Virus record (IMG/VR): IMGVR_UViG_3300029544_000210
Location: 20,406 to 84,405 of that record
Strand: one strand, 5' to 3'
DNA length: 64,000 bases
Origin: a virus
Taxonomy: Duplodnaviria; Heunggongvirae; Uroviricota; Caudoviricetes
Position numbers and translations under genes: made by a program. Of this stretch, positions 11,652 to 31,553 are shown piece after piece (position 1 is the first letter of the stretch; every line of letters begins with the position of its first letter). Below the pieces are notes generated by a model. It worked only from the letters and a program-made list of their open reading frames with translations, made no database searches and was not told the origin of the DNA.

Positions 11652-11719
11652 GTTCCTCTTACCTTAGTAAGTAGTGCGCACTTTATCCTATAGGAACTTT
11701 TCTATTTTTCCTTTCTTAT

Positions 11720-13778: not shown

Positions 13779-13926
13779 TTTTCAAAAAGGTACAACGTTG
13801 TTTTATTCTTGCAAGAAACCTATACCTTTCTTAATATTTTTTGTAATTACATTTATATATTCTTTTAATTCTTGTTGTCTCCAACCTCTGAAGCCTTGAT
13901 TTTAGGGAATTTCAGAGATTGAGATT

Positions 13927-14757
13927 TTAATAATTTGTGATTAATACCTCACAATCGGCACTCTTGTCCTTTTTCTGATAATTGCAGTTGCTATAATCAT
14001 GCTTTAAATAATGAACTATGTATTTATCTTTCCATTTATCAAGTAATGGATTGTCATATTTGAGATTATTACTTAATGCAAACTTAACACCTTTATCATT
14101 CAACATATCAAGAGTCTCTAGTAATTTATTCTCCATTTCTTCTGTCCAGCCACCGTTTTCATTGTATGTAGCAACAGAATTGAAATATGGTGGATCTGCA
14201 TAAACAAAATCGCCTTCCGTAAAATCGGAAAAATCAAATCTCTCAAATGGAATATTTAAGAAACTACAGTCTATTTCATTTAGCCGCTTATGAAAATCTA
14301 TAAATTTTTGTCTAAGAGTGGGATTAAAACTTGACCTATCTTTACCAAAAGGCATATTGTATTCACCTTTGGAATTGAATCTGATTTGATTATTGAACGC
14401 ATAACATAAAAGCGTATAGAATTTAATTGGGTCTTTAATACCTGTGTTATATTCTTCTCTAAACAGTAAATATCCTTCTTTGTTTTCTTTAGTTAATCCA
14501 TACTTATTAATATATGAATCAATCTTATGTAATACTTCTTCAATATTTGAACCTTGTAAATATCTTAGAAAACCAACTACCTGTTCACATATATCATTGT
14601 AGATAATGTGATCAGCCTTTACATTAATACCAACATTAAAACCTCCACCAAATAAATCCACGAAAGTATTTATCTTATCTGGAAACATCGGTATAATGAT
14701 TGGTAGTAACTTATACTTGCCACCTACATAATTAAGTGGACTCTTTATATTACTCAA
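13927..14757 (-). CDS. Dam-family (D12 class) DNA N6-adenine methyltransferase
   Basis: NYVGGK, DLFGGGFNV (motif I), YADPPY (motif IV). Confidence 0.8.
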   Translation of the reverse strand: MSNIKSPLNYVGGKYKLLPIIIPMFPDKINTFVDLFGGGFNVGINVKADHIIYNDICEQVVGFLRYLQGSNIEEVLHKIDSYINKYGLTKENKEGYLLFREEYNTGIKDPIKFYTLLCYAFNNQIRFNSKGEYNMPFGKDRSSFNPTLRQKFIDFHKRLNEIDCSFLNIPFERFDFSDFTEGDFVYADPPYFNSVATYNENGGWTEEMENKLLETLDMLNDKGVKFALSNNLKYDNPLLDKWKDKYIVHYLKHDYSNCNYQKKDKSADCEVLITNY

Positions 14758-14930
14758 TTTTTGTTCACCAATAGTAGCTGCGCAGCTTTACTCACATGTG
14801 AACATTTTCCTTTCTTTAATTGTACTTATATTGTTATATTCTCTTGTTTTGTCCTGAATATTGTATAATTTTCGTGACAAGCCAAGAAACCAAAATTTCT
14901 TCTTGTTTTATTCTTTACCTACTTGTTATT

Positions 14931-15437
14931 TTAATATGGATTGACTTTAATGATTTCTTTTCCAACCTTTTCAGCATACTTAACACAATTTGCAGTACCA
15001 CCTTTTGTGCCATCCCAAACCGCAATAACTTTATCTGCCAAATCAACCATATATTCATTTCTTTTCTGCATTAGCCAAGGCTTATATTCTTCATCAGATA
15101 CCAACTTCACTGTATCTGCTTTTGAAAGAATATCGTTATATTGGTCAATACTTTCCTTAATCCATTTACAAGAATGATTCTTACGAGGAATTGCACAATG
15201 TAATTTAATGTCATAACCTTCGTCTTTGAGTTCTAATACTGCCAATGCAAATACTGTATCAACTCCAAGAGCCATTCCTGTAATCGCTTCTGTACAATTA
15301 TTCTCTTTTAGAATTGATTTAAACTGTTTTTTTAAGTTCTGCCAACGTAGATCAGATAAGTTGTAACCATATAATTTACTTGGTCTGTGACCTGTTACAC
15401 ATATTTTCATATTTTGTCCTTTCACGGTTGGATTCAC
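14931..15437 (-). CDS. SLOG / YpsA-like (DUF1273-like) Rossmann-fold protein
   Basis: ICVTGHRP and ITGMALGVD motifs, plus Gly-rich GTKGG near the C-terminus. The SLOG superfamily is predicted to bind nucleotide-derived ligands. Confidence 0.45.
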   Translation of the reverse strand: MNPTVKGQNMKICVTGHRPSKLYGYNLSDLRWQNLKKQFKSILKENNCTEAITGMALGVDTVFALAVLELKDEGYDIKLHCAIPRKNHSCKWIKESIDQYNDILSKADTVKLVSDEEYKPWLMQKRNEYMVDLADKVIAVWDGTKGGTANCVKYAEKVGKEIIKVNPY

Positions 15438-15759
15438 TTCTCAACCTCAATACTTTTTAAGCTGCCAAGAATGTTCATTGATTGTAGATACAACTTTTTT
15501 GTTACAATTTTAATGGCTTTTTCTAGCACTTCATCGTATGTTATGTATCTCAAATCAATTTTGGTTCTATCATTATCTCTATATATCTTAGGAAGAAAGT
15601 ATAGATAAGCATAATCAACACCTACAAGCTGTGTAGTTAATTGAGCTACCAATTCTTCTCCAATATAGAAATCATATTCACCATATACCCATCTATTTTT
15701 TACTCTGTGCTTTCTTACTTCCATAATCCTTCCTTCCTAATGAAATATCGCATTCATTT

Positions 15760-16092
15760 TTATTTTAGTCTGTTCTTATATCGCTCAATACCATATCTTT
15801 CAAGCGAACTACTTGTCATAGTAGCCATTTCCACGTTTGTATTTAACAGAATTGACAACACAAGTGGAAGCTCATCGATCAGAATATTTTTATCTCTTTT
15901 CATTGCATCAATATCAGCAAATTCATATGCAGAATAAATCTTAACCTCTTTATCAGTAATTCTTTCTGCTAAATCACAAAGATACTGTTTCATACTCTCC
16001 GTTCCTACGATAATTGGATATCCCGTCTCTACTGCTTTCATAATAAGTCTTGTTGATTTACCGTATCCTCTTGGTACATTTAAAATTTCCAT
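15760..16092 (-). CDS. small P-loop NTPase (110 aa)
   Basis: Walker A GYGKST, Walker B-like ILIDELP. Confidence 0.4.
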   Translation of the reverse strand: MEILNVPRGYGKSTRLIMKAVETGYPIIVGTESMKQYLCDLAERITDKEVKIYSAYEFADIDAMKRDKNILIDELPLVLSILLNTNVEMATMTSSSLERYGIERYKNRLK

Positions 16093-16113
16093 GTGTATAT
16101 TCTCCTATCGTTT

Positions 16114-16857
16114 TTAGAAATTTGGATAGAATGAAGGCATAAGCTGAAGCTTGAATAAATTCTTCTCATGCATTGAATCAATCTTCGCTTTTACATCCTC
16201 ATCATTAATCTCTCCTGTTCTGATATACCTATCAAGAGTGTCATAAGTGAATCCAAGGTTGTCCTCGTCAGTCTTTCCACAAAGACCGTCAGTAGGTGTC
16301 TTATCTACTAACTCAGATGGAAGTCCTAATTCACGACCAATCGCCTTAACTTCCGAAACTGTGAGCTGCGATAGTGGACTGAAATCACCTGCTGCGTCTC
16401 CATATCTGGTAGCATATCCTACCCAATCCTCTGAAAGATTACATGTATTTGCAACACGACCATTGATTGTCTGAGATACTGCATAAAGTGTAGCCATTCT
16501 GATACGAGCAGGAAGGTTTGTTGTTGTTTGTATAGATAAATTTTCGTCTAATGATGTTTTAATTTCATATTCAGCAACATTAACAATTGTTCCAATTGGA
16601 ATGATCGTTCGAGGAATATCTAAAAAGTTGCATAGCATATGACTATATTCGATATCAGATTGTCTTCCCTGCGGCATAAGTACACCAAACACTCTATCTT
16701 TCCCAAGAGCTTCTACACACAGAGCAGCTACAACGCTTGAGTCCTTACCTCCTGAAATTCCAACTACTGCATTACAATCCTTACCATTCTTATCAAACCA
16801 ATCTCTGATCCACTGTACTACTTCGTTCTTTACTGTCTTTACATCAAAATTACTCAT
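16114..16857 (-). CDS. nadE: NH3-dependent NAD+ synthetase
   Basis: PP-loop SGGKDS. TRYGDAAGDFSP and TPTDGL...DEDNLGFTYDTLD line up with the E. coli NadE motifs TKYGDGGTDINP and APTADLEDD...LGVTYDNIDD. Confidence 0.85.
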   Translation of the reverse strand: MSNFDVKTVKNEVVQWIRDWFDKNGKDCNAVVGISGGKDSSVVAALCVEALGKDRVFGVLMPQGRQSDIEYSHMLCNFLDIPRTIIPIGTIVNVAEYEIKTSLDENLSIQTTTNLPARIRMATLYAVSQTINGRVANTCNLSEDWVGYATRYGDAAGDFSPLSQLTVSEVKAIGRELGLPSELVDKTPTDGLCGKTDEDNLGFTYDTLDRYIRTGEINDEDVKAKIDSMHEKNLFKLQLMPSFYPNF

Positions 16858-17296
16858 GTTTTATCTCTCCTTTTTCAATCTTCTCAATCAATGTAAGTAA
16901 TTCATTGTATACCTGAATTAAACCGCCTCTGTCATCAATATAAACATTTGCATATATTTTTCTACCTGCAAAAGCTACAGATGCGTCACAATTGATACCT
17001 CTATACTTGATATTGTTGTCCTTTAGATACTGCTCAATCATTCCGTATTTATCTTCACCATTCCCAGTAAAAATAATTATCTCTGAATAATTCTCCCATC
17101 TTTGTAAAAGATTAATGACATTCTCATATGTCCTACCCTTCTTATGGAAATCATAAATCGTATCATCGAAATCTACACAAAAGATAAGCCTGCCATATTT
17201 CTTAAATTCTTCCTCTAATCTATTGTAGGAATTATTGGCTTGAAGATAAAAATCCATATTACTTTCCTCCATACATTCTGTTCCTAATGTCCTCAA
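16850..17296 (-). CDS. HAD-superfamily phosphatase-like protein
   Basis: DxDxT motif CVDFDDTIYDF near the N-terminus. Confidence 0.5.
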   Translation of the reverse strand: MRTLGTECMEESNMDFYLQANNSYNRLEEEFKKYGRLIFCVDFDDTIYDFHKKGRTYENVINLLQRWENYSEIIIFTGNGEDKYGMIEQYLKDNNIKYRGINCDASVAFAGRKIYANVYIDDRGGLIQVYNELLTLIEKIEKGEIKHE

Positions 17297-18761
17297 ATGT
17301 ATCCTCTCTTACTAATTCTCCATTCTTGAATACAGTTGTAAGCAAACTATCTTCATTCATATCGAGTAACTGATCCTGACACTTCAGTTCTCCATCTTCT
17401 TCATATACTTTGCAACACCCCTTATGAGATTTCTTTAAATGGCTTGTATCAGTCTTCGGATCTTTGAAGATCATAAGCCTCTTACCATCAATAACTCCAT
17501 AAGTAGCCTTCATTGCAATTCCAAAAGTATCTCTTGTAACAACAATCATCTTTCCATTCTCGACAATAGCTGTAAAACAAAATGCACCTACACCATAAGC
17601 AATGTTATTAGCTGCAAATCCACGCCTTTCTAACTCTCTCCAAATAGTCTCTACATTAGAAAGAGTACATCCGTCACCATAGATAATACCAATATGAGGA
17701 TCTAACACCTTATAACCCTTACCGTTGATAGAACCACCAAAGATATCCCATAATCTTTCTACTGTCTTAACTGAAATCTCTACAATATCACCACTGTCAG
17801 GACGAACAAGCAACTTGCCATTGTGATTCATAATCTCTTCCTTACACTGTGGAAGAATATTGTTTACCATATTCCAATAATCATAGGTATCTGAAACCAT
17901 ACTAAATGAAGTATTTGGATATAATTCTGTAAGTAATCTCTTAACGAATGTAATCTCATCACCATCAATTGAGTAATTTGCTCCCATTACGGAATGCTCT
18001 GTTGATACTGCACCAATTCCAATACCACTATTCTTACAATCAGCATTGTAATATTTATCAATATATGTAATGGCAGGAATAGTTGAAGTCTTATTGAAAG
18101 ATAATAACCATGAAGCAGAACATCTTGTAGCTTCGTCCATACAAGACATACCTCTCATACCAAAATCGGCACAAGCCATATTGCCAGGTAAACCGTCTGT
18201 TGTTTTGTTATACCAATAATCTGCAATCTCACGATACATATGACCAATAGTTGCGTGACAGCAAGGCTTCCATAATTCAACCTGAAGGATACACTCAATC
18301 CACTGAACAAGCCATGCAAATTTGTCATCTGTATTGGTAATTTCAATACAAGGAACTCCCATTGGTACAAGTGTTCCCTCTGGTAAAGCTCTAATTTTAA
18401 GTGGCAGATAACCAAGTCTGTGAAGTTCTACAATCTTCTCTAAGTCGTAATTATCTCTGCCAATCTGCACATCCATTGAATCTGTATAAAGAGATAACAT
18501 CTCATTCTCTGATAATTCAAAGAAATTCTTCTGGAAATATCCCATTAGATATTCCTTAATAAAAGCCTGTAATCCGAAGAAAACCATATGATTCTGATTT
18601 TCCAACATTGATTTACGAGGCACCCAATATGAGACTAACTTAGTTAATCCCTTTGGGTACATACGATCATGACACTGCTTATAAGTATCACTAAGTAATA
18701 AAGCCATTGTGTTATCCATAATTTTAAACCTCCATAACTGTAATCTTTTCATGACTACCAT
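17259..18761 (-). CDS. nicotinamide phosphoribosyltransferase family (NAMPT; Namat-like in the NARP1 context)
   Basis: 500 aa. Matches the human NAMPT layout throughout: DTYK, ALPEGTLVP, DFGMRG, VRPDSGD, IIYGDG, and C-terminal LLTTVFKNGELVREDTFEDIRNRM. Confidence 0.85.
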   Translation of the reverse strand: MVVMKRLQLWRFKIMDNTMALLLSDTYKQCHDRMYPKGLTKLVSYWVPRKSMLENQNHMVFFGLQAFIKEYLMGYFQKNFFELSENEMLSLYTDSMDVQIGRDNYDLEKIVELHRLGYLPLKIRALPEGTLVPMGVPCIEITNTDDKFAWLVQWIECILQVELWKPCCHATIGHMYREIADYWYNKTTDGLPGNMACADFGMRGMSCMDEATRCSASWLLSFNKTSTIPAITYIDKYYNADCKNSGIGIGAVSTEHSVMGANYSIDGDEITFVKRLLTELYPNTSFSMVSDTYDYWNMVNNILPQCKEEIMNHNGKLLVRPDSGDIVEISVKTVERLWDIFGGSINGKGYKVLDPHIGIIYGDGCTLSNVETIWRELERRGFAANNIAYGVGAFCFTAIVENGKMIVVTRDTFGIAMKATYGVIDGKRLMIFKDPKTDTSHLKKSHKGCCKVYEEDGELKCQDQLLDMNEDSLLTTVFKNGELVREDTFEDIRNRMYGGK

Positions 18762-19560
18762 TAAACAAACTGTTTGTAGTAAATAATCTGTTCACTGTAT
18801 TATTCTCCAAAGACTTGATCAACGTTCCTTTTTCTTTATCAAGAATTGAATTCTCTGTATGTGTTGCATACGCATAAATCTCAGTTACACCATGTTTCTT
18901 TAATTCTTCTGCGCTATAATAAAGTGAACCGCCATATGCGATAATATCATCAATCATTAACACAGCTTTGTCCTTCAAATCAATACCATTTGTTATAATG
19001 TCTAATCCAAGGATTTTGCCAGTCTTCCAATCTCTTTTCTTTTCACCATAACAATATGGTAACTCAGGGAATAAATCTGAATATCTCTTAGCTGCACCTG
19101 CGTCTGGGAAATAAAGTACAAGATTTCTCATGCCAATCTTTGAAATAGCTTTATCAACATACTCTTTTGGATTTTCTTTTACACAATTATTGAGTAATGC
19201 AGTAGAAACATCGCTATGAGCATCTAAAACATAAACTGATGAAAATCCTAACCAATTGATAAAATCGCAAAAATACTTCAATGTGAATACTTCATCATCA
19301 TTTTTTACTCTATCCATTCGTGCATTAGGAATATATGGAAGATATAAATAATAATCCACATTAGTAAAAAATCTTTCAAGATGTTTCCTTACTAACATCA
19401 GATAAAACATCTCATCGTTACTCTCATAAATCCATTCAATCCAAATGCAAGGAGAGCCATCATAAGTGTCTTCCTCAATGTTGTTTGTATCAATATTTAC
19501 TCTTGGTGTTCCATCTGGGAACTTGTTGATTGCTACAATTTCACCATTAATTTTAATCAT
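18724..19560 (-). CDS. ribose-phosphate pyrophosphokinase homolog (Prs-like; candidate ADPR-PP synthetase Adps)
   Basis: PRPP-binding loop VLMIDDIIAYGGSL. Shorter than cellular Prs (278 aa). Overlaps the NAMPT-like gene by 38 nt. Confidence 0.7.
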   Translation of the reverse strand: MIKINGEIVAINKFPDGTPRVNIDTNNIEEDTYDGSPCIWIEWIYESNDEMFYLMLVRKHLERFFTNVDYYLYLPYIPNARMDRVKNDDEVFTLKYFCDFINWLGFSSVYVLDAHSDVSTALLNNCVKENPKEYVDKAISKIGMRNLVLYFPDAGAAKRYSDLFPELPYCYGEKKRDWKTGKILGLDIITNGIDLKDKAVLMIDDIIAYGGSLYYSAEELKKHGVTEIYAYATHTENSILDKEKGTLIKSLENNTVNRLFTTNSLFNGSHEKITVMEV

Positions 19561-19563
19561 ATT

Positions 19564-20076
19564 CTACTCTCCAATCACGTTAATCTGACACATCTTCATT
19601 GTCTCTAATGCAGCCTTATGCGTCTCAGGTGTAACACCTGCACAGCAACTTGCATCCACTGTAATATCAATATTAGGATAATTTGCTCTAATCATAAGTG
19701 CATTTGACACTACACAAATGTCTGTACAAAGACCACAAACTTCTACTTCTGTAAAATCAAAATCATCCCAATGTGTCCATCCGAAAGTCGGCTTATCAAT
19801 AACTACGTCATTCTCAATATCAAAATCTAACTTATCTGAAATCTGCCATCCGATTGTATTTTTTACACAATGGACAACTGGGAGATGCTTTCCTTCATAT
19901 GTTTCTAAATAATTATTTGGGTGTGTATCTCTTGTAAAAATTACACTATCACCATTTTCTCTGTACTCCTTGATTTTCTTTGCCACATTAAGTACAATAC
20001 TCTGTGCTTCATTTGTGCCAAGTGAGCCATCAATAAAGTCATTCTGCATATCAATTACAATTAGTGTTTTACTCAT
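19564..20076 (-). CDS. isochorismatase-family hydrolase, PncA-like nicotinamidase
   Basis: VIDMQNDF (catalytic Asp) and CGLCTDICV (catalytic Cys). Confidence 0.7.
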   Translation of the reverse strand: MSKTLIVIDMQNDFIDGSLGTNEAQSIVLNVAKKIKEYRENGDSVIFTRDTHPNNYLETYEGKHLPVVHCVKNTIGWQISDKLDFDIENDVVIDKPTFGWTHWDDFDFTEVEVCGLCTDICVVSNALMIRANYPNIDITVDASCCAGVTPETHKAALETMKMCQINVIGE

Positions 20077-20480
20077 AATGTTTTTCCTTTCTATACTATA
20101 TCTTGTTATTATTATTTTATCTAACCAGTATATGTAGTGTTAAACTTACCATGAAATGTCGGTTTCAATTCTCGTCATCTTGAAATGCTTTTATTCTATT
20201 TTCAAGATAATCTATCTCATCTTTCCAATGCTCAACTAACATATCTTCAATCTGTTGTTTTGCATCTTCTATGCTATCAGCAATAATTGTGTCATATTCT
20301 ACATTTAATTCTTCTGAAACATAAATATAAACATTCTCATCCGTTTCATCTTGAACAAATCCAGCTACTACATTCTCATTTTCTTCTTCATAGAACTGAC
20401 TGAAATGTAGTTTATAACATTCTTTGCCAAATTCGTTTTTCTCTCCTACTTCCCAATATTTATTCATAAACACCTCACAA

Positions 20481-20705
20481 TTAATTATTCTCTTCATATT
20501 TCTGATCAAATAAGATCATTACAAAAGTAAAAGTGAATATACCTAAAACAATACCACCAACTAAGGCAATTGATTGTGGCAGGAATAAAGATAGTAAAAG
20601 ACTAAATCCTAAAACTAATCCAATTGCCATAGCACATATAATTGCAACTACTAATAATACAGTACAAGTCATTTTAAACGCTTCCTTCAAGTTATCACCT
20701 CCCAA
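20481..20705 (-). CDS. small membrane protein (two TM helices)
   Basis: Hydrophobic stretches VLLVVAIICAMAIGLVLGF and IALVGGIVLGIFTFTFVMI. Confidence 0.45.
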   Translation of the reverse strand: MGGDNLKEAFKMTCTVLLVVAIICAMAIGLVLGFSLLLSLFLPQSIALVGGIVLGIFTFTFVMILFDQKYEENN

Positions 20706-21023
20706 TGAAAGACAGGGTTCTTGTCAAATTTTTATTATTCATATGCTGTCATTTCTATAAAATTCTCATTCAAATCAAATACAATAGCTGCTTGACAATA
20801 AGTACCACCAATAATTAATTCTTTTACATTAGGATTCCATGTTTTCTCTTCGTACTTGATTTTCCATTTATCTAACCAATTCTTCCATTGAATGTAATCT
20901 GATACACATTTTTGACTGCCAAGAATTTGCATCACATCAGACTTTCTTACAAAGCCCATTTCAGATGGTAGCTTGGACAATTCTTTTCGTAATACTGCTT
21001 TATCAATTAATTGTCCCATATGG

Positions 21024-21563
21024 TTATTCTCCTTCTCTACGAGTATATGGTTCACAAAACTCCAACATTTCTTCATTTATATGTCCTTCTTTAATAAGCT
21101 GTTCATACAAATCAATCCAACCTTGTGCAGATAGGTTATGATAATATCCAATACAGTTTCTCCAATGTTTACAATCAAATGTCGATGGATAAGTTTTAAT
21201 TTCAATGTATGTTCTACACTTTTCATATAGATTCTTAGAATAACAATTTGACGCACTTTTAACATAACTATTACATTCAATAAAAGCTTCTGTTGGATCA
21301 TACTTACTTCTCATGTCTGTTAATATTCTGTCATATAATTCTGTCTTAGCGATATATATGCAATGGATTAGAAAATAGATATCATCATCTTCATATGAAG
21401 AACTTGTATAGAATATTTGATTGTGATTGACTTGTTTGTGAGTATCTTGTGGTGTAAACGTTGCTAAAACCTTTTCGATTTCTTCTTTGTGTTCCAAATA
21501 ATTATCAATAGGATCTCTGATTAAATTACACTCAGCTCTATATCCTCGTTTATAATCTGACAT
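21024..21563 (-). CDS. hypothetical protein. Paralog of 5546..5911
   Basis: Shared N-terminal domain YKRGYRAECNLIRDPIDNYLEHKEEIE. Confidence 0.5.
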   Translation of the reverse strand: MSDYKRGYRAECNLIRDPIDNYLEHKEEIEKVLATFTPQDTHKQVNHNQIFYTSSSYEDDDIYFLIHCIYIAKTELYDRILTDMRSKYDPTEAFIECNSYVKSASNCYSKNLYEKCRTYIEIKTYPSTFDCKHWRNCIGYYHNLSAQGWIDLYEQLIKEGHINEEMLEFCEPYTRREGE

Positions 21564-22068
21564 ACTGTTATTCTCCTAATCAATTTCTTCAAATGCAACA
21601 CTATTAAATTCCACATCTGGAAACTCTTTTATATATACAATTGTGTGCCAAGAATGAACTACAATATCTTCCAATGTATATTCTTTATCAACTTCCAATA
21701 AGTGATGATTTTCACCGCCACCACCCCATACGTCATCATCGTTTCTAACACATTTAATTTTTCTTCGTTTTGTATTATAAATATCCATTTAATTTCCACT
21801 CCTCTTCCAAACACCTATATATTCCTGTGACTCCTGTTTGAATCTTTTTAACATATCAATTAATGCATCTACTTCTGTCAAATCATTAAAAACAATCTCA
21901 ACTGGATCTTTTTCTTTTAAATCCAATCTTTCTGCGTAAGGAAATGGTTTGATAAAACATTCAAATTTAATATCTCTGCCCTTATGTCTGAGTGTGATTT
22001 CATTAACATTTTCTTTGTCACCAATCTTCAATATTTTGCCTCCTTGTGAAATGCGAGTTTCATTTGAA

Positions 22069-22815
22069 CTAAATCTCAAACAACTTCTCTACAGCTTTCT
22101 CACCTGTAACTCTATCTGACTTCTGTAACACTTTGCGTTCTTTCTGCCAGATACATTTAAAATCATCAGGCATATTATATTCACTTATCAACACTATATT
22201 ATTTTCTGAAAGTTTACGAAGAAAATCGTAGAATTCGCTATAGTCGATTGACTGTTTAGAATACTGTTTTGTATTTTTATAAGGTGGATCGAAGTAAAAG
22301 AGGCAGTTCTTATAATCTGCAAAGTCTTTGTAATCACAACATCTAAATTCAATATCATTTAAATCAGGAATTTGTGTTCTAAAATTCTTCAGTCTTTCAT
22401 TATAAATACTTCTACCACCCTTAGAATCTCTGCCATATCCACCATCAAAATATCTGCCACCATAAGATGCACAATATCCAATAAGTGCTATATACTCTTT
22501 TGAATACTTATGTGTTCCAAGTTTTCTATCTTCTCTCACATCGGCATAATGTTCAAATGTACATACATCTGGTGCAATAGATAAATCATTATCAGACTGA
22601 GCATATTTCAATAAAGCAATTAGTTCTTCATTAATGTCAGCCCCTATCTTCTTATCACATTTAATCTTATCAATTAAATTCGCTCCACCAACCATAGGTT
22701 CTATGTAAGTTTTAATATTATTGTCATCAATATACTTCTGAATAATTGGCACTAAAAATTTTGCCAATCTATTTTTACTTCCTTGATATACCATTCCATT
22801 ACCAGAAAGTGACAT
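22069..22815 (-). CDS. Dam-family DNA N6-adenine methyltransferase
   Basis: YQGSKNRL, EPMVGGANL (motif I), YFDPPY (motif IV). Paralog of 28735..29460. Confidence 0.75.
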   Translation of the reverse strand: MSLSGNGMVYQGSKNRLAKFLVPIIQKYIDDNNIKTYIEPMVGGANLIDKIKCDKKIGADINEELIALLKYAQSDNDLSIAPDVCTFEHYADVREDRKLGTHKYSKEYIALIGYCASYGGRYFDGGYGRDSKGGRSIYNERLKNFRTQIPDLNDIEFRCCDYKDFADYKNCLFYFDPPYKNTKQYSKQSIDYSEFYDFLRKLSENNIVLISEYNMPDDFKCIWQKERKVLQKSDRVTGEKAVEKLFEI

Positions 22816-22860
22816 GTCCTTAGTAGCTACCTAACTTTTTCCTTTCTGTTTTAATATTTT

Positions 22861-23685
22861 CTACTTCACATATAAACTTTCATACACAATACTATCATTT
22901 GATTTACCAATAGTACGCTTAAAGCTGCTATTACCACTAAGTAAATATTCGTGTCGTGTATATACATCTTCTGGAACATTCCATGTATTGTCTATATCCC
23001 CACTCTTACCATCGAATGATAAAGCATACTTGCAAGGTAAACTCCTCAAATAATTCCAAAACTTCTCATAATCAATTGTTCCATAATACATACCCTTTGT
23101 ATTGGCATAAGGTGGATCAAGATACAAGAAGTCGTTATCTGTTGGGTTAATATCTTCATAAGAACAACTGATAAACTCTACATTATTTTTCTTCAGCATA
23201 TGACTCCACTCAAAAATAATCTTTTCAAAAGTTTCAGGAATAATACCATTTCTTGTTACATGAAAAGAATTATTAAATTCACCATCACGATTATATCTTG
23301 GCATACCATTAGTAGTAGTTCTCATAATGAACATAAAATCTAATGGATTATGTTCTTTATTGTATCGTTCTCTTACACTTGCAAAATATTCTTTTTTACG
23401 TTGTTTGTCATCATCAACATTTAACTCATTCCAGAGTTTCTTATAATAAAAATAAACTTCTAATGGATTATTGATAATCTCTTTCCATAAATCAATTAAC
23501 CCGCTATTCAAATCACTACATACATAATGATTAACTTTGATGTCGCTATCTAATAATCTCCTTAATACAGACGCTCCACCACAAAACGGTTCATAATATG
23601 TATCAATTTCTTTTGGAAAGAATGTCAGTATCTTTTCTGCCTGACTTCTTTTACTTCCACTCCATTTAATTACTGGTTCGTACAT
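22861..23685 (-). CDS. Dam-family DNA N6-adenine methyltransferase
   Basis: IKWSGSKRS, EPFCGGASV, LYLDPPY. Confidence 0.8.
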   Translation of the reverse strand: MYEPVIKWSGSKRSQAEKILTFFPKEIDTYYEPFCGGASVLRRLLDSDIKVNHYVCSDLNSGLIDLWKEIINNPLEVYFYYKKLWNELNVDDDKQRKKEYFASVRERYNKEHNPLDFMFIMRTTTNGMPRYNRDGEFNNSFHVTRNGIIPETFEKIIFEWSHMLKKNNVEFISCSYEDINPTDNDFLYLDPPYANTKGMYYGTIDYEKFWNYLRSLPCKYALSFDGKSGDIDNTWNVPEDVYTRHEYLLSGNSSFKRTIGKSNDSIVYESLYVK

Positions 23686-24186
23686 TTAATCTACTCAGAG
23701 CGAAATTTCTTTAAGGCTGCCACTCACTCCTTTCGTATTTTGTTCACATATATATTTTCTATTTATTCAACAAATCCAAGAATAATTTTTGCAATACACT
23801 TTGCATTATGAGAATCCATATCTTGAATAATCGCTTTTGCAAGATTGATATTATGATATTCTATAATTTCAATCTCTTCGTCTGTTGGATTATTACGATC
23901 TTCAATCGCTGAGTTAAACTTCTGACAAGTTGATATAATATTTTCAAGCATATTTTTCACCTCGCTAACTTCAAATGAAAGATTTCTTTCAATGTATTAT
24001 TTGAATTCTATCTTATTTCTTTTTAATACCTTAACTGCCTTGTCATAATCAGTTTCAGCTACTTTGATGTTTTTCATCTTGGTAGGCTTTGGTTTTATCC
24101 AATAGCGACATTCTGTAATATCTTCGTCATACCACATCAAACCACCTTCACAATATTTATGATACTGGCAGTCATTGTTACCACAT

Positions 24187-25041
24187 CTACTCATTTATAT
24201 ATTCTCTCACTCTCTTATTTCCAACCTCAAAAATTTCCTTATCTTTCTCAAAACATATGTAATTCCTATTTGTATTCATAGCTGCAATCGCAGTTGTACA
24301 ACTTCCTGCACACGAATCAAGAACCAAATCACCTGGATTTGTGTATGTCTTGATAAAATACTCACACGCTTCAACAGGCTTTTGGCACTGATGTAAGCTA
24401 CTTTTCTGAGTATCCCATTTAAACTGCAAAACATCTCTTGGATATCTTTGTGTACTACCACCACCTGAAATACCAATCTTTGTAGCACCATAACAGTTAC
24501 CATCTGTTGTATGTTTTGTATAAGAATGAACAGGCGTATGTCCTTCTGTCATTTGTGGATTGTAAGTAGGGAGTTTCTTATAGAAAATCAAGACATTTTC
24601 GTGTGCCTTCATAGGCATTTTCTTAGCGTTTAGATGACCAGTTGCTTTGGTCTTTTCGATAATCCATTCATAGCGATATAGCTTTTCATTACTACAAGCG
24701 AGCCTCTTATCAAATGGTGACTGCGCCCATAATGCAATACAACCATTATCTTTGATAATTCGATTGTAGTGAGTCCATAAACCATCTTTTTTGTTCTCAT
24801 AAAACCAATCTCTTGTATATTCAAGACTGCTATCTATTACTTGAGCTAACTCGAACAAATCTGTTTCATAAAAATATTGACCTGATAATTCCACATAATC
24901 ATTTAACGGCATTTCACATTCCCAAGAATTATTAGTCGTATTATAAGGCAGATCCGTGAAGATGAAATCGACTGACTTATCATCAATCTTTTTCATACCT
25001 TCAAGACAGTCTTCGTTGTATATTTTGTTAATCTCTAACAT
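24187..25041 (-). CDS. beta-class N6/N4 DNA methyltransferase (pfam N6_N4_Mtase-like)
   Basis: Motif IV-like FTDLPYN precedes motif I VLDSCAGSCTT, which is the beta-class circular permutation. Confidence 0.65.
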   Translation of the reverse strand: MLEINKIYNEDCLEGMKKIDDKSVDFIFTDLPYNTTNNSWECEMPLNDYVELSGQYFYETDLFELAQVIDSSLEYTRDWFYENKKDGLWTHYNRIIKDNGCIALWAQSPFDKRLACSNEKLYRYEWIIEKTKATGHLNAKKMPMKAHENVLIFYKKLPTYNPQMTEGHTPVHSYTKHTTDGNCYGATKIGISGGGSTQRYPRDVLQFKWDTQKSSLHQCQKPVEACEYFIKTYTNPGDLVLDSCAGSCTTAIAAMNTNRNYICFEKDKEIFEVGNKRVREYINE

Positions 25042-25171
25042 TTCTTACTCAGAGCAAATCCAGATTTAATGCTGCAGCAAATCTCTCGCTCCTTTCATTG
25101 TATTAATTCTCTTAATAAATCTCTGTCCATTCACTAATTTCTACTTTATTATCAGGATAACCAGACAAACT

Positions 25172-25552
25172 TCATTCATTATCGTTATATACTACTTTCC
25201 ACATAGCATTTTCTCCATGTGGATTACCTTTAATTTTTCCATAATATAATCCCGAACATGGAGGTACTTCTTCGTCAACATTCTTCCAAATTGGCTTTTC
25301 ATATACCTTATTAATGTCATCTACCGCTTTTGCCAAATTCGTCATTGTATTTGTAAAATATTTTTCCTCTGTTTTAAGCATAGAATCAAAATAACTCTTC
25401 ATAATGTCTAAAAGATTTTTTGTAAATTTTTCAGATGTGTCATTCATTCCAAGTATGTAAGTATGATTAATCTTAAAAGAAATTCCAAGTCCAATAAGTG
25501 TTCCAACACAAAGTCCTAATAATCCAATTAATACCATTAAACAAATATCCAT
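25172..25552 (-). CDS. membrane-anchored hypothetical protein
   Basis: N-terminal TM helix MDICLMVLIGLLGLCVGTLIGLGI. Confidence 0.4.
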   Translation of the reverse strand: MDICLMVLIGLLGLCVGTLIGLGISFKINHTYILGMNDTSEKFTKNLLDIMKSYFDSMLKTEEKYFTNTMTNLAKAVDDINKVYEKPIWKNVDEEVPPCSGLYYGKIKGNPHGENAMWKVVYNDNE

Positions 25553-25623
25553 ATTTTACCTCTCTTTCTTATCATCCGAAGGAAACTTCGGTTTACTGTG
25601 TCTTTTGTAATATCATTTATTTA

Positions 25624-25983
25624 CTATGGTAAGTCAACAATATTGTATCTAACAGTACCATCGTCATATTTCTTGGTTTCTAATATTCCATCAACATATT
25701 CTCCAATTTTGTCTGAATATTTGTTATATGTATTACTACCAGAAATATTATATTCTACACTGTTATATTCAACAGTAATTCTATAAACTGCTGAATGCGA
25801 TTGTGGCATCATCGTTTTAGTCGCAGGATTATAATGCATTGTTGTATAAGCAGCCCTGTGATATTCGTCTGTTATTTTTACTTGAACCGTAGATGTTTCG
25901 GTGCTAATGCATTTTGCACAGCCGGTTAATATAAACATAAATGCTAATAGTAAAGCCAAACTATATAAAATTTTCTTCTTCAT
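25624..25983 (-). CDS. lipoprotein
   Basis: Signal peptide with lipobox LTGCAKC. Confidence 0.5.
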   Translation of the reverse strand: MKKKILYSLALLLAFMFILTGCAKCISTETSTVQVKITDEYHRAAYTTMHYNPATKTMMPQSHSAVYRITVEYNSVEYNISGSNTYNKYSDKIGEYVDGILETKKYDDGTVRYNIVDLP

Positions 25984-28734
25984 ATGGTTTATTCGACCTC
26001 CTTTAACACAAGAATTGCTTTATAGTATCTACTATTACATGAGCTGGACTCTACTTTATATCCAGCATCTAAATAATCATCCATAGCATTCTCAAAATCA
26101 TTGCTATTTTCCATTTCTAAAATTACACATTTCTTCATATGGCTTATTCTCCTTTACTATATCCAGTCTCTTCAAGGAATTTATCAAATTCCTCTTTTTT
26201 CATACAGTTTGGATAATACATATCTACCACCATATCAAACGGCTTTAAATAATTATCCAATACATCTTCAGCATTCTCTTTTGCTTCCTGCATTTTCATA
26301 TTGATATAATCTTCTCTCGTCATATTCCATGCTGTAGGACAATCCGTGACACTCGAAAATCTACAATATAATCCATTCGGTTGTTTTGATATAAATCCTG
26401 CCATATTATTCTCCTAATTCTTTTAGTGCATTAACAAGTTCAGCGAGTCTTGGATTCTCAGGATGCTCCTTTGCCATCTTTTCATATAAAGCAATATTAT
26501 TCATCTTTTCAATCTCAGACTTTAGCTCCTCCTCAATAGAGGCTTTTTGCTTTGCAATTTCTTTCTGACGATTTTCCTCGTCAGTTCTTGCATTGTATGC
26601 GTTCATATTAACTACACCAACAACCTGAGCTGTCACACCTTTTCCATACTCTTCGACTGTCTTAATTTCTTTTAAAATTCCAAGAACTCTATTGCCTTTC
26701 CCTCTTGCATTTACAACCAGATACAACGGATGATTGGTATCATACTTAAGAATTTCATTAATATCTTTATCATATAAAGCAAATCCATAATCTTTCTTAT
26801 TGTAATCATCTACCAAATTTACAATCGCCACTTTACTAAATCCTGTCATTTTATTATCCTCACTTTCATCTCTAATAATATTCAATTCACTTCTACTGAA
26901 CCAATATAATCCATTGGAACTTGCTGCATTATACATTCCGTCAATCTGAACAGCTATTGATCCGTTTGTAGTTTTAATAACTTGTCCATATAGCCCAACA
27001 ATGTTTTCTTCTCTGTATTTTCTTTTATCAGTATATGTAACTTTTACTCGTTGATTTTGATATTCTTCATAATCGTAAATCTTGCTCATCGCATCACCTC
27101 CTGTTAATATATTCTCGTATCATTTACAATTTTTTGACAATTTTCAATTACCCTACAAATCAATCTCTTTCCATTATCACTAAAATAATCATTATTTTTC
27201 TGTTGATTATAGTAATCTTCAAGTTTATTGTTAGCAGATTTTAACCTTCGAGATATATTAGCATAGTCGCACTTATTATCACATTCCGATGAATATTCTT
27301 TATTGTATCTTAATTTACATTCCATACATGGACTGTACATTTTGCACCTCCTGTTAATTTATTCTCCTAATCCATATCTTCTTAACCATTCTTTTTTGCT
27401 TAATGTGGTTACACCACGTTTCTTTTGTTGCTTCCATACCTTGATAGCATATTCTTTTGTCATTCCTGGCACTGGATAATGTATTACGGATTTTGAGATT
27501 GTATATGGTTTTCCTATAGAAGCCATCTTCAACAAATCTAATAAGTTAGTCATAAATATAGCCTCCTAATCCTCAATATAATTTATTTCTTCCAAAATTG
27601 AACTTCCTATAACATATAGTTTCTTTGAAATTATCCTTGTTACTCTTTTAAGGAATTCTTTATGAAGTTCATTCTCTTGCTCATACACAACCATTTTTTG
27701 ATTCCCATTTCTATGACAGCAAGCATATGTTCCTTCCTCATACTCAGCTCCATAATAATAAAAATACAGATTGTATTTATGATTATGTTTACTAAATAAC
27801 CACGGATGAAGCGTTGCAATAGTTATATAGTTATTTCCGATTTTTATTCTAAAATCATAATGTGACTTATTTTGTACGATTTTCAAAAACTTCACCTCTT
27901 TTCATATTAAGAGTACATTCATTTCTATACTCTATGAGAGCATACTTGTTCCTTATCATTACATGTTAGGATCGAGGTTTATTCCAAGGCATTATATTCT
28001 CAAATGAGTTTCAGCCTATACGCTCATCGGTTGACTGACTTGTTAATTTCAGCCTTCACCTTTACTTTTTCACCATCTCAGGTTTTCAGTTCGTTTTACC
28101 TCATTTATATATTCTCTGCTAGAGCAGAAGAAATCTATGATTCTTGTTCTTCTACAACCTTATTATTTTATGTCATCTCTTTCATAAAAACATAAAAGCT
28201 CCGCAGCATGATTCCTTTGAATAGTAAGATTATCTACTTCCTCCTTTAGTTCTTTATTCTTTTTTTCAAGTTCGGCTATTCTATTTCTCAACACATCTTC
28301 TGTTAAAAACTTCTGAGTTCCAATTTGCTTATAATCAAACGGAACAGATTTAACAGAATAATTGCTGATATAATCTGTTGTCCCATCGGTATATGTAATA
28401 GTTGGCTCAAAAAATCCACGATTCTTACAATTGTCACAATGGCAGATAGATGAAATATACCCAATCTTGCCATCATTGTTTTCTACAAAATCACCTTCAT
28501 GAAATTGAATGTCTGTTATATTATTCTCTTTAGGAATAACTGGCTCTCTAAATATAAGTTTTAAATATCCTTCACCTACATTTTCTTCACCGATAAACGT
28601 ATAACCACGATCTTCGTATTTTTTAACTGTTTCTTTTGCTTTGCATATCTTTACGCCAACAGTCATCTATTCATTCTCCTTTTTCTTTGTTTTTGTATAT
28701 ATTTATTCTCTGAAAATCAAAAAGAAATTCCGCT

Positions 28735-29460
28735 TTACTTGGAATTTTTATTTTTATACATAAACAGCTTTTCTCTTCGAAAATCCTTAATGTTATTACA
28801 TTCTCTATTGCTGTCAAATGTAATCTTAACTTGTTTCTCCCAAATGCAATCAAAGTCATCTGGCATTGAATATTCACTTATAATGACAACATTATCTTTA
28901 GACATTTCTCTACACCATTGATAAAATTGTTCATATGGAAATTCACCTGTTTTGTATTTGGTTGTATTTTTATACGGTGGATCACAATATATTACATACC
29001 CATGTAAATTAGAATAATCTAAAAATGAAGCTGTTCTAAAATGGATATCTTTAAGATTTGGAGCTTGCTTCATGCATGATTTGTAAGAATAAATATCTCC
29101 CCGATGTTTAGCATCATCACGCTTTGCATAACCACCAAACCACTTTGCTCCAAAACTAAGTTCATATCCTATATACCCTGTTATAAAATCAGAATATTTG
29201 TCAGGATTATTTTTTACATCAATATAAAATTCTTTCGATACTTCTTTTGGTGGTTCAATTCCTTGCTGCAAACCAATAAGTACAGAAATTACATATTTAT
29301 CAATATCGCTTCCTATCTTATTGTCACATTCAATTTTATCAATAATATTTGCACCACCTACGAATGGTTCTAAATAACCATTGCATCCCTTGTCTATATA
29401 ATTCTGTATAATCGGTACAATTTGTTTTGATAACCGATTTTTGCTTCCCATGTAAATCAT
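28735..29460 (-). CDS. Dam-family DNA N6-adenine methyltransferase
   Basis: GSKNRL, EPFVGGANI, YCDPPY. Paralog of 22069..22815. Confidence 0.75.
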   Translation of the reverse strand: MIYMGSKNRLSKQIVPIIQNYIDKGCNGYLEPFVGGANIIDKIECDNKIGSDIDKYVISVLIGLQQGIEPPKEVSKEFYIDVKNNPDKYSDFITGYIGYELSFGAKWFGGYAKRDDAKHRGDIYSYKSCMKQAPNLKDIHFRTASFLDYSNLHGYVIYCDPPYKNTTKYKTGEFPYEQFYQWCREMSKDNVVIISEYSMPDDFDCIWEKQVKITFDSNRECNNIKDFRREKLFMYKNKNSK

Positions 29461-29517
29461 TATGTATCAGGAGTAAACGCTGCGTTTTCGGTATACCAAA
29501 CCTCTTACTCCTTTCTT

Positions 29518-30441: not shown

Positions 30442-30951
30442 AATACACTATTTTACAGAGGTTATATAACCATAATTACCTAGGAGTTACTGCTTAATTC
30501 CTTTCTTCTTGATTATTTTGTTGTAAAATCCTATGGAATTTGCACGTCTGCAAAAACCATAAGAAAAAAATATTTCTTGTTACTTTTATTTGGAAATTTT
30601 GGCTGAATTGCCAAGATAGAAATTTCTATATATGATTATTCTCTACATACTTTCTAATAAAACTGTTTCCAGTTCGATAGAACCCCAATTATTATTTGGT
30701 TTAATATAAGCAATTGATAAAACAGAACACTCATAGCCAGGAGAATCAAATGCGTCCGTAACATCCAGCTTAAAAGAAATGTTCTTTTTAGTCAATTCCT
30801 GCTTCAGCTCGTCAACAACATCATAATAATTTTCTTCATCTTCTCTGTAACGATGATAATATTCATGTTCTTCATCAAAATACTTGTCCAAAATTTCTTC
30901 TATAATATCCATCCTTTTCACCTCACAATCCAAAGAAAGAGAATTTTAATC

Positions 30952-31431: not shown

Positions 31432-31435
31432 ACAG

Positions 31436-31507: not shown

Positions 31508-31553
31508 TTAGTAAGGTGTGAGTTATATCACACCTTTTAATTAATATTAATAA

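Follow-up and report, generated by a model that had tools for sequence, protein, structure and literature searches.

Methyltransferase genes and their leaders

The stretch of 64,000 nucleotides (nt) analyzed here (hereafter the window) comes from a Caudoviricetes virus, IMG/VR record IMGVR_UViG_3300029544_000210, positions 20,406 to 84,405, and this study concerns the short 5′ leaders that precede its DNA methyltransferase genes. The G+C content of the window is 31%, and nearly all of its genes lie on the minus strand. A megablast search of the window region against the deposited phages of INPHARED found no close relative; IMG/VR contains hundreds of related contigs of ~110-170 kb, most of them with the sample-accession prefix 3300045988. 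Pfam and PHROG scans identified eight DNA methyltransferase genes within 9.6-30.5 kb. These genes, and an RNA ligase gene that has a similar leader, are as follows.

29518..30441, minus strand: C5 methyltransferase gene (Pfam/PHROG), TTG start
28735..29460, minus strand: D12 methyltransferase gene (Pfam/PHROG)
24187..25041, minus strand: N6_N4 methyltransferase gene (Pfam/PHROG)
22861..23685, minus strand: D12 methyltransferase gene (Pfam/PHROG)
22069..22815, minus strand: D12 methyltransferase gene (Pfam/PHROG)
13927..14757, minus strand: D12 methyltransferase gene (Pfam/PHROG), TTG start
13251..13778, minus strand: phrog_799 methyltransferase gene (PHROG, 5.5e-31)
9673..10293, minus strand: phrog_799 methyltransferase gene (PHROG, 2e-60)
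10482..11651, minus strand: RNA ligase gene, TTG start

The original prediction held that five Dam-like methyltransferase genes, starting at 29460, 25041, 23685, 22815 and 14757, share a leader architecture. One of the five enzymes belongs to the N6_N4 type and not to the D12/Dam class. The pattern itself stood and proved broader, covering all eight methyltransferase genes and the RNA ligase gene. For the 22069 gene an upstream in-frame ATG is present at 22815, but the true start is most likely ATG 22794, as in homologues beginning MVYQGSKN, which confirm it; the leader geometry fits only with this start.

The nine leaders are listed below. Each carries a sequence resembling a Shine-Dalgarno (SD) element far from the start codon. 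P1 denotes the helix formed by this SD-like arm and a complementary segment close to the start; ORF, open reading frame.

29461..29515, minus strand: leader D, of the D12 gene 28735..29460; SD-like GAAAGGAG 29508..29515; P1 arms GGAGTAA 29505..29511 and TTACTCC 29470..29476; hairpin 1 TTTGGTATACCGAAA 29486..29500; hairpin 2 AAACGC-A-GCGTTT 29475..29487; short ORF TTG..TGA 29467..29499, 10 codons, ending 6 nt before the ATG; 9-nt spacer to ATG 29460
25042..25096, minus strand: leader A′, of the N6_N4 gene 24187..25041; SD-like GAAAGGAG 25089..25096; P1 arms GGAGCGAG 25085..25092 and TTTGCTCT 25051..25058; hairpin 1 TGCTGCAGCA 25070..25079; hairpin 2 AAATCTGGATTT 25056..25067; short ORF TTG CTG CAG CAT TAA 25066..25080; 9-nt spacer to ATG 25041
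23686..23734, minus strand: leader A, of the D12 gene 22861..23685; SD-like GAAAGGAG 23727..23734; P1 arms GGAGTGAG 23723..23730 and TTCGCTCT 23697..23704 (-11.2 kcal/mol); GGC-A-GCC 23715..23721; palindrome GAAATTTC 23702..23709; short ORF GTG..TAG 23691..23723, 10 codons, ending 5 nt before the ATG; 11-nt spacer
22795..22848, minus strand: leader E, of the D12 gene 22069..22794 (revised start); SD-like GAAAGGA 22840..22846; arms CAGAAAGG 22841..22848 and CTTTCTG 22803..22809 (-10.2 kcal/mol); palindromes GTAGCTAC 22823..22830 and GACATGTC 22811..22818; 8-nt spacer to ATG 22794
14758..14814, minus strand: leader B, of the D12 gene 13927..14757, of different design; distal GAAAGGA 14808..14814; 7-bp helix of TGTTCAC 14798..14804 with GTGAACA 14762..14768, burying the proximal SD GGTGA 14765..14769; palindromes TCACATGTGA 14792..14801 and AGCTGCGCAGCT 14776..14787; upstream ORF MFTCE 14788..14805
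13779..13832, minus strand: leader F, of the gene 13251..13778; arms AAGAAAGGTA 13823..13832 and TACCTTTTT 13784..13792 (-10.2 kcal/mol); palindromes TTCTTGCAAGAA 13806..13817 and ACAACGTTGT 13792..13801; short ORF TTG CAA GAA TAA 13803..13814; fold z=-2.6; 5-7-nt spacer
10294..10352, minus strand: leader E′, of the gene 9673..10293; arms ATCAGAAAGG 10343..10352 and CTTTCTGGT 10302..10310 (-11.1 kcal/mol); palindromes GTAGCTAC 10326..10333 and TCATATGA 10312..10319; start-stop GTG TAG 10330..10335; 8-nt spacer
30442..30505, minus strand: leader of the C5 gene 29518..30441; distal GAAAGGA 30499..30505; palindromes CCTAGG 30479..30484 and GGTTATATAACC 30460..30471; local hairpin CTCTGTAAAATA / TATTTTGACAGAG 30433..30460, enclosing the start codon
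11652..11715, minus strand: leader of the RNA ligase gene 10482..11651; distal GAAAGGA 11709..11715; palindromes TCCTATAGGA 11686..11695 and AGTGCGCACT 11673..11682; helix of AAGTTCCT 11692..11699 with AGGAACTT 11650..11657, burying a weak proximal SD and the start codon

The SD-like elements predicted for leaders D, A′ and A (GAAAGGAG) and for E and B (GAAAGGA) were found as described, 47, 47, 41, 24 and 50 nt 5′ of the starts at 29460, 25041, 23685, 22815 and 14757, respectively. The predicted palindromes are also present; the positions of GTAGCTAC in leader E and GCTGCAGC (25071..25078) had been given exactly, those of AGCTGCGCAGCT were one base off, and those of CGCAGCG (actually 29478..29484) two bases off. 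CGCAGCG is not a true palindrome; it is an odd-centred repeat inside AAACGC-A-GCGTTT. The pairing of GGAGTAA with TTACTCC in leader D was borne out. Absence of a proximal SD was confirmed for four starts (-2.3, -4.9, -3.5 and -3.8 kcal/mol) but not for 14757, which has GGTGA 7 nt upstream (-7.6 kcal/mol), although this is buried in the 7-bp helix. Both upstream ORFs exist, but neither is conserved in relatives: most relatives have TTG in place of the MKGARDLLQH ATG, which overlaps the SD-like element, and the ATG of MFTCE is absent in relatives.

SD strength was calculated as duplex energy with the 16S 3′ end over positions -20..-4, and -8 kcal/mol or lower was considered a good SD. Among the other genes of the window the median was -11.4 kcal/mol and 102 of 115 reached -8, whereas seven of the eight methyltransferase genes lacked such an SD, compared with 13 of the 115 others (Fisher p=7.9e-6), even though any start within the first 35% of the ORF was allowed. 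The C5 gene, for instance, starts without an SD (-1.9 kcal/mol). All eight methyltransferase genes and the RNA ligase gene have GAAAGG(A/T)(G) 24-64 nt 5′ of the start. Palindromes of at least 8 nt are generally avoided in the window (236 observed, ~334 expected); 12 of the 34 perfect GC-containing palindromes of this size fall within the nine leaders, which total 506 nt, or 0.8% of the window. As regards shorter sites, CAGCTG and GGATCC are missing (10.8 and 4.0 expected), the single CTGCAG (7.0 expected) lies inside leader 25042..25096, and the only CCTAGG of the window lies inside leader 30442..30505.

Complementarity of -9 kcal/mol or better between the SD arm and the segment before the start occurs in six of the nine leaders, compared with 2.6% of random segment pairs of the same separation and none of 120 other GAAAGG sites of the phage. 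In the minimum free energy (MFE) folds of these six, the SD-like arm is base-paired with a pyrimidine segment ending 5-11 nt 5′ of the start, forming a P1 of -9.1 to -11.3 kcal/mol (GGAGUAA/UUACUCC; GGAGCGAG/UUUGCUCU; GGAGUGAG/UUCGCUCU; AAGAAAGGUA/UACCUUUUU; and CAGAAAGG/CUUUCUG, twice). The pyrimidine segment, of CUCC or CUUUC type, occupies the place where an SD is usually found, and the P1 arms enclose two short hairpins. Between the 3′ arm and the start there are 9 nt in leaders D and A′, 8 nt in E and E′, 11 nt in A and 5-7 nt in F. SD, palindrome and pairing statistics thus show the shared architecture to be non-random and specific to methyltransferase genes, as predicted, although the RNA ligase leader shows that the design is not strictly confined to them.

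Chance similarity of intergenic regions, or mis-called starts, can practically be discarded: GAAAGGA is a common SD of this phage (24 minus-strand copies) and short palindromes are frequent in AT-rich DNA, but all three statistics are contrary, homologues begin at the same residues, and comparative data (model matches at E<1e-6 and hundreds of conserved copies elsewhere) refute it.

A portable and widespread leader

Comparison with relatives revealed that the leaders move independently of the genes. The N6_N4 gene has the same ~70-nt leader in more than 60 relatives, behind at least 10 unrelated upstream sequences, with the junction at AGAGAATA. In six relatives this enzyme has no leader and directly follows another methyltransferase gene; it then uses an ordinary GGTGAT-5 nt-TTG site that overlaps the upstream stop, and the leader stands before the upstream methyltransferase gene instead. 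Leader A precedes three D12 families in relatives, including homologues of the 22069 gene, and leader B precedes both D12 and phrog_799-type enzymes. Another leader, type C, is absent from the window and precedes three further families in relatives. Two upstream contexts were seen for leader D among the relatives. In unrelated phages, distant homologues of the 28735 enzyme share its first residues (MIYMGSKN) and have either a normal SD (AAGGAG/AAGAGG 7-10 nt upstream) or none. From these relatives and homologues it follows that the start codons are right, that the enzymes do not need the leader, and that leader and proximal SD are alternatives. The idea of five private regulatory regions was therefore rejected, as the leaders are portable modules and the same leader stands before different methyltransferase families.

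Matches to the N6_N4 gene also vary in length: those in relatives L028 (3001-4063) and L059 (3001-4099) are ~210-240 nt longer than others of the same identity group (3001-3852, 3001-3861), and those in L057 and others (3001-3735) are ~120 nt shorter, which points to an insertion, perhaps an intron or mobile insert, and to a deletion variant inside the gene.

The upstream contexts of relatives diverge exactly at AGAGAATA, which marks the upstream edge of the portable cassette. This motif has 35 minus-strand copies and no plus-strand copy in the window (8.8 expected, at most 17 in shuffles); most are intergenic, 10-25 nt 5′ of SDs, and copies lie just upstream of most leaders. Examples are given below. 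The motif is probably a phage promoter or another transcript-level signal; since it occurs genome-wide and is not specific to methyltransferases, one promoter or operator common to the five genes was rejected.

29519..29526, minus strand: AGAGAATA
14837..14844, minus strand: AGAGAATA
10356..10363, minus strand: AGAGAATA
52646..52653, minus strand: AGAGAATA
5551..5558, minus strand: AGAGAATA
23753..23760, minus strand: variant AGAAAATA, upstream of a leader
22855..22862, minus strand: variant AGAAAATA, upstream of a leader

We searched viral contigs and one genome per species with the arms and internal anchors of leader D, that is, with sequence patterns that fix part of the element. A looser scan (GAAAGGAG-N28-44-TTACTCC) gave matches of which about half were due to chance, and these were filtered by palindrome content. 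About 100 distinct copies of a ~46-nt element were identified in phage contigs. Further copies were found in genome records of Lachnospiraceae, other Clostridia, Anaerotignum, Roseburia, Robinsoniella, Eubacterium and Enterococcus, presumably in prophages or other integrated elements. The consensus begins after an upstream stop codon, usually by 4-8 nt, and consists of GAAAGGAG, U(A/G)(A)GAGGUUUG and a GC-rich palindrome of 8-14 nt, followed by 2-4 nt, (U)AAA-N6-UUU(A), CUCC, 8-10 nt (mode 9) and the start codon. CUCC lies 8-10 nt before the start in 73 of 101 instances (mode 9), and none of the 101 main starts has an SD of -8 kcal/mol or better (mean -1.7 kcal/mol). When only the internal anchors were fixed, 98 distinct copies were recovered; after hairpin 2, 93 of them have CUCC and three CUCU, and a single copy lacks GGAG upstream.

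A covariance model, R1, was built from 75 copies (46 positions, 12 pairs; its E-values are rough owing to short calibration). It gave 138 matches in relatives, all in gene sense. Within the window it detected leader A′, which was outside the training set (25051..25096, 42.3 bits, E=3.3e-7; its P1 has U-A replaced by C-G relative to the family), and leader D, which was in the training set (29470..29515, 53 bits, E=1.6e-9). At least these two leaders belong to the widespread family. Leader F gave a borderline match (13789..13830, 14.4 bits, E=0.33), and of the C5-gene leader only the arms matched (16.6 bits, E=0.11); the R1 scan left the leaders at 23734, 22846, 14814 and 10348 undetected. Leader A aligns with leader A′, and leader E with E′ at the DNA level but not at the protein level.

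Approximately 60% of genes downstream of the element encode DNA-modification enzymes. The 98 distinct downstream proteins include 28 C5 methylases and 11 N6_N4 methylases, and N6_Mtase, D12, MT-A70, PF05869 Dam, Eco57I-type and small S-adenosylmethionine (SAM)-methyltransferases also occur. In addition, we found seven Pfam matches to the PAPS-reductase domain, a recurrent ~405-residue protein assigned to PAPS reductase in PHROGs without a Pfam match, two Mom proteins, one radical-SAM protein, five SNF2 helicase-methylase fusions, four sigma factors and a few regulators. At L134, L231, L319, L321, L328 and other loci, from genomes and from viral contigs, the element precedes sigma-70-type factors, a Tn916-type excisionase fusion and D5-like regulators, and it may thus reside in integrative conjugative elements as well as in phages. 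Among cultured phages, the element was detected in Enterococcus faecalis phages phiFL1A-C, phiFL2A/B, phiFL3A/B and EFC-1, between a hypothetical gene and a methyltransferase gene whose annotated start lies 9 nt past GCUCC. It was the Enterococcus-type consensus that found it in INPHARED; the Lachnospiraceae-type consensus returned nothing relevant there.

No Rfam family overlapped a leader when window positions 12000..32000 and six canonical loci were scanned with Rfam 15 (cmscan, E<=10), which gave only tRNAs and sub-threshold noise; resemblances to SAM, preQ1 and hammerhead-like RNAs seen by eye were dropped, and full-text literature searches found no description of the element. We regard it as very likely a real conserved cis-element.

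Several other features of the region were noted. A nicotinamide phosphoribosyltransferase (NAMPT) homologue (17259..18719; nearest deposited phage match a human faecal phage, 52% identity) and a YpsA/SLOG-family protein (14931..15437) are, like the RNA ligase (10482..11651), interspersed among the methyltransferase genes, and the three may form an NAD/RNA-repair counter-defence cluster. Immediately upstream of the methyltransferase region are two adjacent minus-strand tRNA genes (31359..31431 and 31436..31507; Rfam 66 and 53.5 bits). The gene at 41590..42204 encodes a protein with an AP2 domain, as is typical of HNH-type homing endonucleases; its SD is weak (-6.3 kcal/mol), which is rare among non-methyltransferase genes.

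RNA pairing, palindromic centres and ribosome entry

The structures and mechanisms considered here are computational, and gene starts were assigned by homology. In the stems of the family 96% of cells are paired, compared with 81% after shuffling and 40-52% after sliding of the partners; the covariation score is 0.39, versus 0.10 (shuffled) and at most 0.06 (slid). One stem pair, for example, is CG in 30, GC in 28 and UA in 16 copies. The outer layer of hairpin 1 is U-A in 46 and U.G in 26 of 75 copies, with only three other mismatches, and the mismatch corresponding to G.T on the opposite strand is essentially absent. This tolerance of U.G, together with strict sense orientation, argues that the sense strand, i.e. 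the mRNA, folds, and the outer stems probably act as RNA. P1 is strongly predicted: in single-sequence folding of 89 family members the GGAG:CUCC pairing probability has a median of 0.998, and the pairing is in the MFE structure of 89%. Divergent window leaders shift both arms together (GGAGUAA/UUACUCC, GGAGCG/UGCUCU, AAAGGUA/UACCUUU, CAGAAAG/CUUUCUG). In a variant of leader B (L001:4018) the outer helix is kept by a compensatory change from GTTCAC/GTGAAC to GTACC/GGTAC.

The hairpin centres are a different matter. Hairpin 1 has at least four central Watson-Crick layers in all 45 distinct sequences. The 26 distinct sequences of hairpin 2 comprise 18 perfect even palindromes, five with one central unpaired base and three with T.G at or beside the centre; its innermost pair, formed by adjacent nucleotides, covaries (CG 25, GC 19, AU 16, UA 7). 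Four-nt loops are self-complementary in 78% of hairpins inside the element and in 5.5% of other hairpins in the same loci. Close leaders differ by symmetric double changes (AAGGAATTCCTT/AAGAAATTTCTT; GAAATTTC/GATATATC), and the latter, found in relatives of leader A, keeps the palindrome. Because the central four bases cannot pair in an RNA hairpin, RNA hairpins do not explain the palindromy of the centres, and a DNA-level component is possible. RNA copy-copy pairing, DNA-level recognition of the cores and a mutational process that perfects palindromes are candidates, and predicted self-duplexes of the leader RNA are very favourable. It is quite unlikely, in our view, that the palindromes act beyond simple hairpins, either through pairing between leader-RNA copies or through cores read as restriction/methylation sites on DNA.

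With regard to imperfect centres, hairpins 2 AAACGTGCGTTT, AAATCTGGATTT and AAAGATTGTCTTT, three of the four T.G-containing hairpin-2 sequences, have a T.G pair (two central, one adjacent), and each differs by a C→T change from a perfect palindrome found elsewhere. Of these three changes, two are at CpG or CCGG, the signature expected of 5-methylcytosine deamination.

Common translational or operator control had been suggested for these genes. Translational control is the best reading, because the SD pairs with a complementary segment beside a start that has no SD, and we consider it somewhat favoured overall. An operator at the DNA level is unlikely for the stems, because they tolerate U.G and almost never the opposite-strand G.T mismatch. 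We propose that a portable folded mRNA leader replaces the ordinary ribosome-binding site (RBS) of each methyltransferase gene. The distal SD would be the gene's only ribosome entry site, because the element and a proximal SD exclude each other and the start is separated from the fold base by a distance typical of an SD; this is the firmest inference of the model. Entry would be gated by P1, because the SD is paired to its complement; the 30S subunit might invade P1 from the unpaired GAAA toehold, or P1 might be opened by the ribosome finishing the upstream gene 4-8 nt before the element. The ribosome could then reach the start in two ways: the folded insert might loop out to leave a discontinuous RBS whose effective spacing is long, or a short ORF beginning 7-8 nt after GGAG might be translated, followed by re-initiation. 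The output would be low, structure-limited translation tied to translation of the operon itself, which would suit enzymes that are needed in small amounts and harmful in excess. A module with its own entry site and gate could be moved before any cargo gene and would thus allow free recombination among DNA-modification genes. The leaders probably limit the amount of anti-restriction enzyme made. We give about even chances to gated entry with attenuated output as the function, and hold the specific gating mechanism more tentatively.

Several points weigh against this model. P1 shows no classical covariation in the main family, because GGAG and CUCC are nearly invariant; it is supported by thermodynamics and by the divergent leaders of the window. 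When RNAalifold was applied to a MAFFT alignment, only hairpin 1 was predicted, a result that is uninformative because hairpins of different length were aligned asymmetrically. Leaders 14758..14814, 30442..30505 and 11652..11715 fold differently. The model does not account for the perfect palindromy of the hairpin centres, and the direction of control, repression or activation, is inferred. In addition, family diversity is under-sampled, because copies were collected with sequence patterns. Each of the two routes to the start has difficulties of its own, and each may also be viewed as an alternative to gating.

The first alternative is an activating split RBS, as in T4 genes 38 and 25, in which a fold brings the distant SD near the start and enhances translation. 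It fits a start without another SD and a fixed distance of ~9 nt from the fold base to the start. In the Enterococcus-type element a second GGAG (GAAAGGAG-U-GGAGG) can pair with CUCC and leave the first SD free; in L118 and L122 the free SD then immediately precedes a three-way junction in which both hairpins form, and the effective spacing is ~10 nt. However, the first GGAG is itself paired in the unconstrained ensemble, whereas the SD of T4 is outside the hairpin, and in the majority class (UAAGAGG) the alternative register leaves at least 13-15 nt. When the SD was constrained to be unpaired, effective spacings were predicted anywhere between 2 and 24 nt; a clean split RBS is therefore not general, and we judge this explanation unlikely.

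An equally unlikely alternative is coupling through the leader ORF, whereby ribosomes begin at a TTG or GTG that follows GGAG by 7-8 nt, translate across the hairpins and then re-initiate at the main start, which lacks an SD, with hairpins and P1 only tuning the process. TTG lies 4-11 nt after GGAG in 93 of 101 family members, commonly at 7-8 nt. The stop is within -9..+1 of the main start in 32 of these 93, including 13 ATGA-type overlaps, and in four the frame continues into the main ORF. Within the window, the 10-codon ORFs of leaders D and A end close to the ATG, and start-stop pairs are present in leader E′ and in relatives of leader B. On the other hand, the remaining 8 of 101 have no start codon there, stops range from -31 to beyond +50 of the main start, and 24 short ORFs end 22-31 nt upstream; such scatter is not expected of a conserved termination-reinitiation device. 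Moreover, neither peptide nor reading frame is conserved, no such ORF exists in leader E, and the TTG and frequent TAA are also accounted for by the stems (UUUG...CAAA of hairpin 1, UAAA...UUUA).

Short leader ORFs (29460, 25041 and 14757) and one preceding methyltransferase ORF (22861..22863 to 22815) are in frame with the main gene, with one or two stops between. This was judged a coincidence because the frames are not conserved in relatives. Recoding by readthrough, a variant code or T4 gene-60-type bypassing was rejected: frames are inconsistent across leaders and relatives, there are no matched take-off/landing codons, and homologues start at the annotated Met.

Control at the DNA level appears considerably less probable. 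Here the palindromic cores would be type II-like sites or operators of dimeric proteins, and their methylation or occupancy would regulate transcription. Perfect centres could not be selected through pairing within an RNA hairpin, self-complementary loops are in excess, and the cores resemble type II sites (GGCC, GTCGAC, GCGGCCGC, GAGCTC, GACGTC, GAATTC and others). The window avoids palindromes and has its only CTGCAG and CCTAGG in leaders, and three imperfect centres differ from perfect ones by the C→T changes noted above, two of them at CpG/CCGG. There is also a precedent in helix-turn-helix (HTH) regulators of anti-defence operons, which bind DNA repeats and the RNA hairpins encoded by them (PMC13551039). 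However, identical palindromes precede different enzymes and even non-methylase genes, which also disposes of the suggestion that the palindrome is the methylation site of the downstream enzyme. No single regulator could read dozens of different cores, the outer stem layers tolerate U.G in a strand-specific manner, and the element lies inside operons, a few nt past an upstream stop, rather than at an obvious promoter.

Slightly more doubtful still is a recombination module, in which the leader and upstream AGAGAATA provide homology for shuffling of cargo between co-infecting phages and any regulation is secondary. The same leader is found before different genes and the same gene behind different leaders, with junctions at AGAGAATA upstream and at the start codon downstream, and the PeSL cassettes are a precedent (PMC2839356, PMC4122927). 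But homology requires neither SD:anti-SD complementarity nor a fixed 9-nt spacing, compensatory stems or loss of the proximal SD, and shuffling is compatible with gated entry rather than exclusive of it.

Comparison with known systems and significance

The split sites of T4 genes 38 and 25 have a single-stranded SD 22 and 27 nt from the start, and a hairpin between SD and AUG enhances initiation (PMC3014915). The element resembles them in having an SD far from the start (24-64 nt), structure between the two, a phage gene and no other SD. It differs in that the SD is one strand of the closing helix, which encloses two further hairpins, and in being portable and widespread rather than tied to one gene. 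The SD is predicted to be paired in the ensemble, and among the effective spacings obtained with it held open, ~10 nt was seen only in the GGAG-U-GGAGG subclass. In SAM-III/SMK-box switches and RNA thermometers the sequestered SD is proximal, 5-10 nt from the start, and the anti-SD is upstream. Pairing of an SD with an anti-SD in the same leader is common to these systems and the element, but the order is reversed here, with the SD distal and the anti-SD at the usual SD position, and the leaders scanned showed no ligand-binding core or Rfam match.

Translation of Mu mom is controlled by an mRNA stem-loop at the initiation region, where the activator Com binds beside the hairpin that covers the mom start. 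Like mom, the genes considered here are phage DNA-modification genes, and the cargo of the element includes Mom-family genes. However, the fold is different and no Com-like partner was identified; ORFs 23997..24194 and 23763..23951, checked as candidates, had no family match. Motifs in the 5′ untranslated regions of anti-CRISPR operons that are bound by Aca1/Aca2 contain repeats that can function at the DNA level and also, in the RNA, as hairpins (PMC13551039). As proposed for the element, translation of phage anti-defence genes is limited there by structured 5′ leaders, but each Aca motif has a cognate HTH or ribbon-helix-helix gene and a sequence conserved per family, whereas the hairpins of the element are hypervariable and no associated regulator was identified; none of Aca type was recognised beside the window leaders. 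Control by a C protein, as in restriction-modification systems, was rejected, as the palindromes are all different and no HTH match was obtained in the scanned neighbours 25172..25552, 23763..23960, 23997..24194, 30643..30912 and 28163..28666, in contrast to C-box control, which would require an adjacent controller gene and conserved repeats of GACT...AGTC type.

PeSL cassettes of T4-type phages are short regulatory modules that flank accessory genes and take part in modular shuffling (PMC2839356). Unlike PeSL, which combines a sigma70-like promoter with a terminator stem-loop, the element carries an SD and its complement, placed relative to the start, and the leader sequences have neither a U-tract after either hairpin nor a -35/-10 pair. 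Integron attC sites work as folded single strands of DNA, have extrahelical bases and R''/R' cores (RYYYAAC/GTTRRRY), and need the IntI integrase. They share with the element variable sequence, conserved structure, palindromy, location between promoterless cassettes and inverse-complementary ends (R''/R' versus GGAGUAA/UUACUCC). This possibility was rejected because the conserved ends of the element are an SD and its complement and its stems are perfect, without bulged bases; no integron integrase was seen in the window region, where no search was aimed at one. The guanidine-II (mini-ykkC) riboswitch likewise has two small hairpins, and a self-complementary dinucleotide in their ACGR tetraloops allows one loop to pair with the other. 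In the element, by contrast, the two loops differ and vary freely, so that only identical elements could pair, and no Rfam match was found. Attenuation by a leader peptide, as in ermC, was rejected as well: peptide sequence, length and frame are not conserved and the main family has no proximal SD2. A buried proximal SD, with a 5′ arm inside a short ORF, is present in leader B (14758..14814) alone among the window leaders. Thus, the element is closest in working principle to the T4 38/25 sites, SD:anti-SD switches, Mu com/mom and Aca leaders, and is a member of none of these groups.

Methyltransferases and other DNA-modification enzymes are the main counter of phages to host restriction, and, to our knowledge, how phages control the dose and timing of such enzymes is understood in only a few cases, such as Mu mom. 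Our results point to a single portable element that serves many phages and prophages of Firmicutes in the human gut and stands before C5, N4/N6, D12, MT-A70, Mom, PAPS-reductase-like and helicase-methylase genes. It provides a sequence signature for finding anti-restriction cargo and corrects start calls in metagenomic phages, in which SD-based gene callers will mis-start such genes. Its presence in cultured E. faecalis phages (phiFL1-3 and EFC-1) offers an experimental system. A distal SD paired to its anti-SD, in combination with palindromic hairpin centres, is unusual, and its explanation could reveal a new form of initiation gating. If leader RNAs pair with each other, translation of modification enzymes would fall as transcript or genome copy number rises; if the cores are read on DNA, enzyme synthesis would be tied to the methylation state of the phage genome. 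Either reading of the palindromes, if true, would represent a new class of regulator of phage anti-restriction genes.

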